A stretch of DNA of 64,000 nt from Escherichia coli (GTDB lineage Bacteria; Pseudomonadota; Gammaproteobacteria; Enterobacterales; Enterobacteriaceae). The DNA lies in assembly GCF_024700885.2 (NCBI RefSeq), contig NZ_CP117016.1, one strand, 5' to 3'. This document shows, piece by piece, positions 12,755 to 15,350 of this stretch. The notes under the pieces are model-generated. The model did not search any database and was not told the origin of the DNA. It saw nothing but the letters and a program-made list of their open reading frames with translations. Every line of letters starts with the position of its first letter. The stretch's first letter is position 1. A program made the translations under genes and the position numbers.

Positions 12755-14341
12755 ATGAGTCATCGTGCACGACACCAATTACTGGCGTTGCCGGGCATTA
12801 TCTTTTTAGTTCTCTTTCCCATCATTCTGTCGCTATGGATTGCCTTCCTTTGGGCAAAATCAGAAGTGAATAGTCAGCTCCAAACTTTTGCTCAGCTGGC
12901 GCTGGATAAATCCAAGCTGGTCATTCGCCAGGCAGATTTAGTGAGCGATGCAGCAGAACGCTATCAGGGGCAAGTTTGCACTCCAGCCCATCAAAAGCGA
13001 ATGTTGAATATTATTCGTGGCTATCTTTATATTAATGAATTGATCTATGCCCGTGATAACCATTTTTTATGCTCATCGCTGATAGCGCCTGTAAACGGCT
13101 ATACGATTGCACCGGCCGATTATAAACGTGAACCTAACGTTTCTATCTATTATTACCGCGATACGCCTTTTTTCTCTGGCTATAAAATGACCTATATGCA
13201 GCGGGGAAATTATGTGGCGGTCATCAACCCTCTCTTCTGGAGTGAAGTGATGTCTGATGATCCGACATTGCAATGGGGTGTGTATGATACGGTGACGAAA
13301 ACCTTTTTCTCGTTAAGCAACGAGGCCTCGGCAGCAACGTTTTCTCCGCTGATTCATTTGAATGATTTAACCGTACAAAGAAATGGCTATTTATATGCGA
13401 CAGTTTATTCGACAAAACGCCCAATTGCAGCCATTGTTGCGACTTCATATCAACGTCTTATAGCACATTTTTATAATCATCTTATTTTTGCATTACCCGC
13501 CGGTATTTTGGGGAGTCTTGTTCTGTTATTACTCTGGCTACGTATTCGACAAAACTATTTGTCTCCCAAACGCAAATTGCAACGCGCCCTCGAAAAACAT
13601 CAACTTTGCCTTTATTACCAGCCAATAATCGATATCAAAACAGAAAAATGTATCGGAGCTGAAGCATTGTTACGTTGGCCTGGTGAGCAGGGGCAAGTAA
13701 TGAATCCGGCAGAGTTTATTCCGCTGGCAGAAAAGGAGGGGATGATCGAACAGATAACTGATTATGTTATTGATAATGTCTTCCGCGATCTGGGCGTGTA
13801 CCTGGCAACACATGTCGATCGCTATGTTTCTATTAACCTGTCGGCCTCCGATTTTCATACGTCACGGTTGATAGCGCGAACCAACCAGAAAACAGAGCAA
13901 TATGCGGTGCGTCCGCAGCAAATTAAATTTGAAGTGACTGAACATGCATTTCTTGATGTCGACAAAATGACGCCGATTATTCTGGCTTTCCGCCAGGCTG
14001 GTTACGAAGTGGCAATTGATGATTTTGGTATTGGCTACTCTAACTTGCATAACCTTAAATCATTGAATGTCGATATTTTGAAAATCGATAAATCGTTTGT
14101 TGAGACGCTGACCACCCATAAAACCAGTCATTTGATTGCGGAACATATCATCGAGCTGGCGCACAGCCTGGGATTAAAAACGATCGCTGAAGGCGTCGAA
14201 ACTGAGGAACAGGTTAACTGGCTGCGCAAACGCGGCGTGCGCTATTGCCAGGGATGGTTCTTTGCGAAGGCGATGCCGCCGCAGGTGTTTATGCAATGGA
14301 TGGAGCAATTACCCGCGCGGGAGTTAACGCGCGGGCAATAA
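12755..14341 (+). CDS. pdeC: Cyclic-di-GMP phosphodiesterase PdeC (CSS-motif sensor plus EAL domain)
   Basis: ORF track 12746..14341; trimmed to [10 protein letters not shown] giving 528 aa. EAL motif (EALLRW) and two N-terminal transmembrane segments present. Confidence 0.9.
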
Positions 14342-14343
14342 AA

Positions 14344-14667
14344 CTACAGGCGGTGGCGATAATCGCTGGGAGTGCGATCAAACTGCCGACGGAAAACGCG
14401 GGAGAAGGTCTGCTGCGAGACATAACCCAGGTCCATTGCGATATCAAAAATCGGACGCTCGGTGGTGCGCAACTCAACGGCGGCCAGTAACAGGCGGCGT
14501 TGGCGAATGTAATCACCAAGTGTCTGATGCGTCACCGTGCGGAACATCCGCTGTAAGTACCACTTTGAATAGCCTGATTTTTTTGCGACGACATCAATGT
14601 TAAGCGGCTGGTCAATATGCTCGTCAATCCATGCGATAAGATCCTGAATAATTTTCTGATGGGACAT
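14344..14667 (-). CDS. soxS: Superoxide response AraC-family activator SoxS
   Basis: 107-aa ORF MSHQKIIQDLIAWIDEHIDQPLNIDVVAKKSGYSKWYLQRMF matches SoxS. Confidence 0.96.
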   Translation of the reverse strand: MSHQKIIQDLIAWIDEHIDQPLNIDVVAKKSGYSKWYLQRMFRTVTHQTLGDYIRQRRLLLAAVELRTTERPIFDIAMDLGYVSQQTFSRVFRRQFDRTPSDYRHRL

Positions 14668-14723
14668 AAATCTGCCTCTTTTCAGTGTTCAGTTCGTTAA
14701 TTCATCTGTTGGGGAGTATAATT

Positions 14724-14741
14724 CCTCAAGTTAACTTGAGG
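14724..14741. promoter_or_regulatory. SoxR operator: perfect 18-bp palindrome in the soxS promoter spacer
   Basis: cctcaagttaacttgagg read directly, between divergent soxS and soxR. Confidence 0.8.
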
Positions 14742-14752
14742 TAAAGCGATTT

Positions 14753-15217
14753 ATGGAAAAGAAATTACCCCGCATTAAAGCGCTGCTAACCCCCGGCGAA
14801 GTGGCAAAACGCAGCGGTGTGGCGGTATCGGCGCTGCATTTCTATGAAAGCAAAGGGTTGATTAGCAGTATCCGTAATAGTGGCAATCAGCGGCGATATA
14901 AACGTGATGTGTTGCGATATGTCGCAATCATCAAAATTGCTCAGCGTATTGGCATTCCGCTGGCGACCATTCGTGAAGCATTTGGCGTGTTGCCCGAAGG
15001 GCATACATTAAGTGCGAAAGAGTGGAAACAGCTTTCGTCCCAATGGCGAGAAGAGTTGGATCGGCGCATTCATACCTTAGTGGCGCTGCGTGACGAACTG
15101 GACGGATGTATTGGTTGTGGCTGCCTTTCGCGCAGTGATTGCCCATTGCGTAACCCGGGCGACCGCTTAGGAGAAGAAGGTACCGGCGCACGCTTACTGG
15201 AAGATGAACAAAACTAA
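14753..15217 (+). CDS. soxR: Redox-sensing MerR-family regulator SoxR ([2Fe-2S])
   Basis: 154-aa ORF with cysteine cluster [17 protein letters not shown]. Confidence 0.96.
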
Positions 15218-15350
15218 AGCGCCACAAGGGCGCTTTAGTTTGTTTTCCGGTCTTTGTCTTTCTCTCTATCCCGCTGGTACACAGGAGGGTTTCCCCCGAC
15301 GTCAACACACCTCATTCGAGCACGTGGTGGAGGTTCCGGTTGGTGTTGAT
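15212..15350 (-). ncRNA. ryjA: Putative small RNA RyjA, antisense to and overlapping the soxR 3' end
   Basis: Placed from remembered K-12 arrangement only; a hairpin at 15215-15238 with a minus-strand T-run would fit its 3' end. Boundaries approximate. Confidence 0.3.

Follow-up and report, generated by a model that had tools for sequence, protein, structure and literature searches.

The small RNA SraL, which is the same as RyjA, is a 140-nt transcript that adjoins soxR on the opposite strand (PMC3753932). It has been seen on Northern blots of Escherichia coli and Salmonella (PMC3753932, PMC2190706, PMC12956327), one of these signals coming from E. coli strains that express RyjA from the sibD minimal promoter (PMC12956327), and stationary-phase cells were reported to contain it as a distinct species about 140 nt long (PMC3753932, PMC2190706). 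In Salmonella, ChIP and a lacZ fusion showed SraL to be RpoS-dependent, and the RNA represses tig in trans through a 7-bp segment located a small number of nucleotides upstream of the tig SD, the pairing having been confirmed by compensatory mutations (PMC3753932). The overlap of the SraL terminator with that of soxR was described in 2007, when loss of RNase III was also found to alter the SraL species and cleavage within this overlapping terminator was suggested (PMC2190706). The decay of SraL involves PAP I and RNase III, and Hfq stabilises it, as has been established mainly in Salmonella. Further papers reportedly connect SraL with rho mRNA.

Two other described systems are close to the arrangement of this region. 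Overlapping bidirectional intrinsic terminators of convergent E. coli transcription units are said to have been described by Ju et al. in 2019 with SEnd-seq. In such terminators a palindromic hairpin with an A-run on one side and a T-run on the other stops transcription on both strands, and the 3' ends of both RNAs are complementary over the hairpin (bioRxiv 10.1101/2022.10.23.513370). The convergent excludons are a class of pairs whose expression is, by definition, mutually exclusive and whose overlap is processed by RNase III; pdeC-soxS, a converging pair with 3' overlap and a tiny intergenic distance, is listed by ExcludonFinder as a convergent overlap of the MG1655 excludome, seen in 50% or more of the 58 stranded RNA-seq samples, but its entry rests on RNA-seq coverage, by which it was placed in the class, and regulation is not implied (PMC12288877).

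The DNA studied here, referred to as the window, is a stretch of 64,000 nt from E. coli contig NZ_CP117016.1 (assembly GCF_024700885.2). It is chromosomal and 100% identical to several E. coli strains and 99% identical to K-12, in which pdeC, soxS, soxR and the ncRNA ryjA are annotated at the corresponding coordinates. In addition, the locus was found in 5419 of 5426 complete genomes, with 100% matches to E. coli genomes, and its synteny is kept across 55 Enterobacteriaceae loci. The window holds the canonical and well-studied E. coli pdeC-soxS-soxR-ryjA(sraL)-ghxP locus. Identities with the K-12 proteins were 100% for SoxS, 98.7% for SoxR and 98.1% for PdeC, and Pfam searches gave the EAL (1.5e-69) and CSS-motif (3.1e-51) domains in PdeC and HTH_18 (2.8e-23), with HTH_AraC also matched, in SoxS. 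The identities originally predicted for the three genes thus agree with both the K-12 annotation and the Pfam domains. The RefSeq start of pdeC is an ATG internal to the longer open reading frame. Divergent soxS and soxR genes are separated by a perfect palindrome, which we take to be the operator that SoxR uses in the soxS promoter, and in this respect the soxRS superoxide-response regulon of this strain has no difference from the K-12 system. The coordinates of all features are given in the following table.

Table. Features of the pdeC-soxS-soxR-sraL region, with positions counted from the first nucleotide of the window.
Feature	Position	Strand	Details
pdeC (yjcC), c-di-GMP phosphodiesterase, CSS-motif + EAL	12755..14341	+	Stop TAA 14339-14341; ORF 12746-14341
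C-rich, G-poor RNA past soxS stop, antisense to pdeC 3' end	14186..14343	-	Composition
G/C-rich hairpin within last pdeC codons	14308..14339	-	12 bp; core 8 bp 14312-14319 / 14328-14335
Spacer "aa" between convergent pdeC and soxS stops	14342..14343	.	2 bp
soxS, AraC/XylS-type activator of superoxide regulon	14344..14667	-	Stop TAG 14344-14346
Perfect 18-bp palindrome CCTCAAGTTAACTTGAGG	14724..14741		soxS-soxR intergenic; identical to K-12
soxR, MerR-family redox sensor	14753..15217	+	Stop TAA 15215-15217; Pfam MerR, MerR-DNA-bind
ryjA / sraL small RNA, 141 nt	15210..15350	-	Rfam RF01408; overlaps soxR CDS by 8 nt (15210-15217)
Bidirectional intrinsic terminator, 13-bp stem, 5-nt loop	15211..15241	.	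Arms 15211-15223 / 15229-15241
SraL nt 28-34, GUGCUCG	15317..15323	-	Perfect complement of CGAGCAC, -29..-23 of K-12 tig 5' UTR
sraL promoter	15357..15385	-	-10 TACAAT (15362-15357) then TAA; -35-like CTGGCG (15385-15380)

The RNA read from the minus strand where soxR ends is RyjA (b4459), that is SraL, already known and characterised. The covariance model RF01408 (sraL), whose gathering score is 39, matched with 153.3 bits (E = 5.3e-36) and over the full model (positions 1-142 of 142), and the 141 nt are 100% identical to those of K-12, where ryjA lies at 4277926-4278066 (-) and overlaps the end of soxR. The same position, directly downstream of soxR and on the opposite strand, is occupied by sraL in other Enterobacteriaceae loci. 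The RNA is conserved in 55 such loci, and its promoter -10, body and terminator are kept. The RNA had been predicted as a putative sRNA of roughly 140 nt, with ryjA as its name; name, strand, length and coordinates were right, and the word putative understated an RNA that is both annotated and experimentally characterised (PMC3753932, PMC2190706, PMC12956327). Gene, position, strand, σS-type promoter elements and terminator are those of E. coli b4459 and no difference was seen; the function has been shown mainly in Salmonella and is assumed for this strain.

The promoter of sraL has a 17-bp spacer and places the +1 at an A (15350), with TACAAT-TAA at -12 to -4. Features of σS-type promoters are present, namely the -10, the downstream TAA and a +1 that coincides with the start of the RF01408 model. 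Among 30 species the -10 conforms to TA(C/G)A(A/C)T, its positions being invariant, and the -35 keeps its TGG. As regards the target, the heptamer at SraL nt 28-34 is probably the tig-pairing segment and fits the published description (PMC3753932). In stationary phase and with Hfq, the 5' part of SraL would pair with the tig 5' UTR, leading to less trigger factor. An unconstrained RNAduplex prediction of SraL against K-12 tig (-120 to +30) gave -51.3 kcal/mol vs a mean of -57.9 for shuffled SraL, and 266 of 300 shuffled sequences were at least as good; the long duplex was consequently dropped as meaningless and the 7-nt complementarity alone was retained.

The terminator between soxR and sraL is a perfect 13-bp inverted repeat (AAACTAAAGCGCC / GGCGCTTTAGTTT), and the soxR stop codon is embedded in its left arm, as had been proposed. 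The further proposal that the same hairpin fits the 3' end of the sRNA agrees with the K-12 annotation, from which the SraL 3' end is taken; the RF01408 match ends at 15210. On the plus strand the hairpin has a free energy of -25.9 kcal/mol (z = -5.1) and on the minus strand of -23.8 kcal/mol (z = -6.3), neither being equalled in 200 shuffles. Read on the minus strand, it is followed by UUUUGUU (15213-15207), giving the Rho-independent terminator of SraL, and the consensus terminator scan called it in this direction. On the plus strand it is followed by UUUGUUUU (15239-15246). The T-run of this strand, TTTGTTTT, straddles the end of the 13-bp stem, and the soxR terminator was left uncalled by the consensus scan because T residues are counted only after the full stem. 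A single hairpin with a U-run on both strands is therefore present, as in the E. coli overlapping bidirectional terminators, from which it differs in that one partner is an sRNA and that the Escherichia hairpin arm carries the soxR stop.

Rightward reading of this hairpin and UUUGUUUU would end the soxR mRNA, whereas leftward reading of the hairpin and its UUUUGUU would end the 141-nt RyjA/SraL started from the σS-type promoter. In Escherichia the final three soxR codons and the stop overlap the A-run and the hairpin's left arm, and the complementarity between SraL and soxR is thus limited to the terminator, about 31-40 nt. The overlap would then be mainly an economical sharing of a terminator, and may also form a SraL-soxR substrate for RNase III that affects SraL decay. 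Among 30 species the stem of this terminator shows practically no change, and thus offers no basis for judging covariation. The spacing between the soxR stop and the hairpin, on the other hand, varies among species (-4 to +153 nt), with inserted repeats in some of them; the stop lies inside the hairpin in just 10 of 56 sequences, and thus this detail is lineage-specific, and 11-153 nt upstream of the hairpin in 25 of 56.

At the other side of the locus, the tail-to-tail packing of pdeC and soxS with a gap of 2 bp was found as predicted, and the same gap is present in K-12, where pdeC ends at 4277057 and soxS begins at 4277060. The distance between both stop codons is -16 to +7 bp in all 44 Enterobacteriaceae loci compared, which belong to several genera, and the junction sequence varies by clade, with gaps of +2, -4, -16 and +6. 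The absence of a terminator hairpin between the stops, also foreseen, is a matter of room because 2 bp cannot hold one; neither the consensus scan nor a relaxed scan identified a hairpin plus T-run terminator near the junction on either strand. The overlap of the two convergent transcripts, likewise anticipated, follows from this geometry and agrees with the published MG1655 excludome (PMC12288877).

Since the gap leaves no room for a terminator, a complete soxS mRNA ends inside the pdeC coding region and a complete pdeC mRNA ends inside or beyond the antisense soxS. A further structure of the region, overlooked in the original prediction, is an all-G/C hairpin inside the 3' codons of pdeC. 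Its 8-bp core reads CCCGCGCG-ggagttaa-CGCGCGGG, and it reaches 12 bp when read on the minus strand, where it starts 4 nt past the soxS stop; a proper U-tract is lacking. We conjecture that it is a candidate 3'-end structure of the soxS mRNA, with a terminator or stabiliser role. In an alignment of 15 Escherichia/Citrobacter sequences its lower 5 bp are conserved and a few changes are compensatory, and 81.7% of the cells are paired vs 73.5% in shuffles; this covariation support is modest, and coding constraint confounds it. Behind this hairpin, the minus-strand RNA past soxS has C/G ratios of 1.6-1.7 in 78-nt windows, in comparison with 0.6-1.0 in the plus-strand RNA downstream of pdeC; judged from composition alone, it is compatible with Rho loading.

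The soxS mRNA would probably end at or shortly beyond the G/C hairpin in the final pdeC codons, and Rho may act there on the C-rich RNA that follows the hairpin. Transcription of pdeC, which has no recognisable terminator, would probably be halted within soxS by Rho or by polymerase collision. Among the entries listed in the Term-seq supplement of PMC7815308, ryjA, pdeC and soxR do not appear and the one soxS entry is a 3' end located at the soxS start codon, which we do not take as a sign that other ends are absent. Gene and RNA identities, structures, conservation, the existence of the sRNA and the overlapping RNA-seq coverage have been demonstrated here or in the literature; the exact 3' ends of pdeC and soxS, an involvement of Rho and any regulatory consequence are what we infer.

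The original prediction also saw in this arrangement an antisense interplay around the sox regulon, and several regulatory readings were weighed. The abutment of pdeC and soxS might be a selected excludon switch coupling redox stress to c-di-GMP signalling, in which strong induction of soxS by superoxide would silence pdeC, either because transcription interferes or because RNase III cleaves the 3' duplex, and transcription of pdeC would in turn dampen soxS. Overlapping transcription in at least half of the RNA-seq samples (PMC12288877), a narrow gap kept in all 44 species and the lack of an intrinsic terminator on both strands in both scans are consistent with it. However, tight packing is expected from conserved synteny and no insertion alone, the junction differs among clades as it would under drift, and the excludome list is coverage-based. 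Moreover, the literature search found neither reciprocal-expression or RNase III data for the pair nor any report of mutual regulation of pdeC and soxS, and we regard such a switch as unlikely. More doubtful is that SraL works as a functional cis-antisense regulator of soxR, by 3'-end pairing or by polymerase collision at the terminator, so that σS-induced SraL would lower or stabilise soxR mRNA and the superoxide response would be tied to stationary phase. The segment shared by SraL and soxR, i.e., the hairpin of the terminator and 8 nt of the soxR coding sequence, is sequestered in each RNA in a stable intramolecular hairpin of -24 to -26 kcal/mol, which stands against pairing despite a perfect complementarity over at least 31 nt that includes those 8 nt. 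The variable distance between stop and hairpin means that coupling to the soxR coding sequence is not conserved, and the target shown for SraL, tig, is regulated in trans (PMC3753932). It is established for E. coli that RNA polymerases collide head-on at bidirectional terminators (bioRxiv 10.1101/2022.10.23.513370), cleavage in the soxR-overlapping terminator was suggested by the authors who saw the SraL species change on loss of RNase III (PMC2190706), and the stem is more invariant than structure alone requires; all this would favour such a regulator, but no effect of SraL on soxR was found in the literature search. As a regulatory mechanism around the sox regulon, the antisense interplay was not supported.

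A wider reading joins both ends of the locus: the abutment would be selected, with soxS antisense-silencing a redox-controlled PdeC or pdeC setting the threshold of soxS, while σS-driven SraL would tune soxR via the invariant terminator. This combination seems to us improbable. Finally, minus-strand positions 15235-15423 could code for a small protein instead of, or besides, the sRNA, since a mechanical open reading frame of 62 aa is found there and an in-frame ATG at SraL nt 36-38 would give one of 26 aa. Nevertheless, the internal ATG is missing outside Escherichia (most species have GAC-TGA in place of GAA-TGA), the 62-aa frame begins upstream of the mapped sraL +1, and conservation of the region tracks RNA stems and single-stranded motifs instead of codons. 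A small protein inside SraL, which has hardly any probability left, was rejected because its start codon is not conserved.

The reading that we retain, with high confidence, is terminator sharing at soxR/sraL and terminator-less convergence at pdeC/soxS. The original observation is correct but ordinary: the annotation of E. coli K-12 already contains all the elements, and the sRNA, the terminator shared with soxR and the overlap of the pdeC and soxS transcripts are already in the literature. The finding as it stands is of little consequence. What value remains is that of a clean, highly conserved case of two economies of bacterial 3' ends, one in which a single hairpin terminates two converging transcripts (soxR and SraL) and another in which convergent genes have no terminator at all between them (pdeC and soxS). 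If the joint reading were true, it would wire oxidative stress directly to c-di-GMP and biofilm control; and a textbook stress regulon would gain a post-transcriptional layer if the overlap were shown to couple soxS induction to pdeC expression, or SraL to soxR.

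The 1.6-kb stretch around pdeC, soxS, soxR and ryjA was 100% identical in several complete Escherichia coli chromosomes, presented 99% identity with K-12 MG1655 and was found at a coverage of at least 80% in 5419 of the 5426 complete E. coli genomes. The region was plasmid-borne in 3 of its 5427 matching places in these genomes, appeared in two copies in two genomes and was absent from one. Pfam analysis identified CSS-motif and EAL domains in PdeC, HTH_18/AraC in SoxS and MerR in SoxR.

Coordinates of the features of the pdeC-soxS-soxR-ryjA locus
Feature	Position	Strand	Source
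pdeC stop codon (TAA)	window 14339-14341	+	sequence
soxS stop codon (TAG)	window 14344-14346	-	sequence
pdeC	K-12 4275471-4277057	+	K-12 annotation
soxS	K-12 4277060-4277383	-	K-12 annotation
soxR	K-12 4277469-4277933	+	K-12 annotation
ncRNA ryjA (b4459)	K-12 4277926-4278066	-	K-12 annotation
ghxP (last gene of the matching K-12 stretch)			K-12 annotation

The pdeC and soxS stop codons are separated by 2 bp (14342-14343) on opposite strands, with identical spacing in K-12, and this gap is too short for any element, so that, as the original prediction indicated, no terminator hairpin lies between them. Neither the consensus scan nor the relaxed scan identified a hairpin followed by a T-run near the junction on either strand, and the scans found no terminator-like site on the plus strand 3' of pdeC across the whole antisense soxS. 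The overlap of both transcripts, also anticipated, is forced by the geometry for complete mRNAs and has been observed by RNA-seq: pdeC-soxS is one of the 165 convergent "excludons" of MG1655 in the ExcludonFinder study, a class requiring the RNA-seq-defined transcript boundaries of a pair to overlap in 50% or more of the 58 stranded samples (PMC12288877). A strong G/C hairpin that the original prediction had not mentioned was found within the last ten pdeC codons (core CCCGCGCG / CGCGCGGG at 14312-14335). In the soxS-sense orientation the hairpin reaches 12 bp, begins 4 nt past the soxS stop and is followed by UGCUCCAUC, with no U-tract. The minus-strand RNA 3' of the soxS stop (14186-14343, about 150 nt) is C-rich and G-poor (C/G 1.6-1.7), a composition that, judged from the sequence, is rut-like; on the plus strand, the RNA 3' of pdeC is rich in G (C/G 0.6-1.0). 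The soxS mRNA would end at, or shortly beyond, the hairpin in the pdeC codons, read-through would be cleared by Rho acting on the C-rich RNA behind it, and pdeC transcription may be stopped inside antisense soxS by Rho or by collision. Separately, the supplementary Term-seq data of Adams et al. (2021; PMC7815308) include a strong 3' end (score 43001) located at the start codon of soxS, at K-12 4277382 or about 14666 (minus strand) in the window. Such an end implies a short, abundant RNA made up of just the soxS 5' UTR.

The gap between pdeC and soxS was measured in 44 sequences (41 scanned loci, two reference E. coli loci and the window). It was +2 bp in 16 of them, belonging to Escherichia and Citrobacter, -16 in 13 from Klebsiella, Raoultella and others, in which the coding regions overlap, -4 in seven and +4 to +7 in eight. 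Tail-to-tail abutment of both genes is therefore general, and the junction sequence varies by clade. In the 16-nt overlap of Klebsiella, Raoultella and their relatives (loci L017, L020, L026, L032, L046, L050, L051 and others) both stops are TGA; Leclercia, Lelliottia and Silvania have a 4-nt overlap with shared stops of the TTAA or CTAA type. Among the 15 Escherichia and Citrobacter sequences with the +2 gap, the pdeC 3' hairpin retained its lower 5 bp with a few compensatory changes; paired cells reached 81.7% vs 73.5% in shuffles, with both-side changes in three pairs, a covariation that is suggestive only because the region is also protein-coding. The conserved packing, together with the redox-related character of both genes, could be read as a mutual-exclusion switch maintained by selection. 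However, conserved synteny by itself accounts for the packing, and we consider such a switch unlikely.

At the soxR side, the Rfam family sraL (RF01408) matched end to end at 15210-15350 on the minus strand (153 bits, gathering score 39), coinciding exactly with K-12 ryjA and with identical sequence; the original prediction of ryjA, as a minus-strand RNA of about 140 nt, was correct. The soxR stop (15215-15217) does lie within a hairpin: it belongs to the left arm of an inverted repeat (15211-15241) whose 13 bp pair perfectly around a loop of 5 nt. The folding energy of its RNA was -25.9 kcal/mol for the plus strand (z = -5.1) and -23.8 kcal/mol for the minus strand (z = -6.3), and none of 200 shuffles folded as stably on either strand. 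The stem leads into UUUGUUUU on the plus strand and into UUUUGUU on the minus strand, where the consensus scan classed it as a terminator. This single hairpin would end both converging transcripts, soxR and SraL (RyjA); a stem-loop combined with head-on RNA polymerase collision is a published termination mechanism at overlapping bidirectional terminators (bioRxiv 10.1101/2022.10.23.513370). Complementarity between SraL and the soxR mRNA is confined to the terminator hairpin plus 8 nt of the soxR coding sequence, and a duplex is disfavoured because each RNA stably folds the shared segment by itself. Viegas et al. reported that the terminators of SraL and soxR overlap, and described a longer SraL species without RNase III, higher SraL stability without PAP I and an approximately 3-fold stabilisation by Hfq (PMC2190706). 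The RNase III effect could stem from an occasional SraL/soxR duplex. A role of SraL as a cis regulator of soxR is unsupported, and we regard it as improbable.

A degenerate SraL-core pattern retrieved 55 loci among GTDB species representatives, nearly all from Enterobacteriaceae. SoxR was beside the match in all of them, and PdeC, SoxS and GhxP were present in every locus whose fetched stretch was long enough. Typical enterobacterial soxRS-sraL loci also appeared under the titles Chryseobacterium sp. (L056, CACSKA010000007.1), "Bacillota bacterium" MAG (L036, JAEWQV010000038.1; proteins 99-100% identical to those of E. coli) and "Proteobacteria bacterium" MAG (L012, JAFACP010000440.1), which are probably contaminated or mis-binned assemblies. 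Conservation extended over the SraL body and its promoter: the -10 element reads TACAAT or TAGAAT with TAAAG next to it on the downstream side, and the -35 keeps its TGG. Terminator stems commonly drift through compensatory changes. The 12-13 bp stem common to SraL and soxR was near-invariant, with 29-30 of 30 identical per pair in 30 species of many genera (15211-15241; columns 126-157 of alignment A3), a striking sequence conservation; covariation is uninformative here because the 12 pairs are essentially invariant. Conservation is comparable along the entire 3' half of SraL.

The position of the soxR stop was surveyed in 56 sequences, the 55 loci and the window. It fell in the hairpin arm in 10 (Escherichia, C. 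amalonaticus and a few others), 0-8 nt upstream within an A-run in 20, and 11-153 nt upstream in 25, some with an inserted repeat; one sequence had no hairpin within 200 nt of the stop. Given this variability, the hairpin is primarily that of SraL and serves soxR too, and embedding of the stop is lineage-specific because Escherichia SoxR has two additional residues. In several loci of Enterobacter and Lelliottia (L016, L021, L033, L035, L045) there is an insert of about 100 nt with REP-like palindromes (e.g., gccggatgcgcttcgcttatccggcctac) between soxR and the SraL terminator, their soxR stops being 91-131 nt from the hairpin.

Two ORFs were noted here, a mechanical one of 62 aa (15235-15423, minus strand) and one of 26 aa that opens with an internal ATG of SraL (SraL nt 36-116). 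A small protein encoded by SraL was rejected: the internal ATG exists only in Escherichia (elsewhere GAC-TGA for GAA-TGA), so the ORF is probably not coding. Upstream of ghxP, the top σ70-like promoter match of the region (15567-15596, plus strand; TTGAAA, 18-nt spacer, GATAAT; 10/12) lies about 170 nt 5' of the gene, and the motif aacgtttgc(g/t) is repeated around it at 15489, 15598, 15639 and 15693, resembling operator repeats, possibly of the PurR type.

SraL, discovered in 2001 in two E. coli screens, adjoins soxR on the opposite strand, builds up in stationary phase, is directly transcribed by σS (ChIP and lacZ fusion) and in Salmonella represses tig, the trigger factor gene, through base pairing 5' of the SD, as proven by compensatory mutations (PMC3753932). 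In a 2026 study, Northern blots revealed RyjA in E. coli strains where the sibD minimal promoter drove its expression, and A is given as its first nucleotide (PMC12956327). In the window, SraL nt 28-34 (GUGCUCG) are the perfect complement of CGAGCAC, 11 nt 5' of the K-12 tig SD, a match that fits the published description of tig pairing. Further work reportedly connects SraL with the rho mRNA. The original observation is confirmed and its interpretation partly supported: the gene and RNA identities and the transcript overlap are correct, while the antisense interplay proposed for the sox regulon is conjectural. All elements of the locus were previously annotated or published; the regulatory role of SraL would be exerted in trans.
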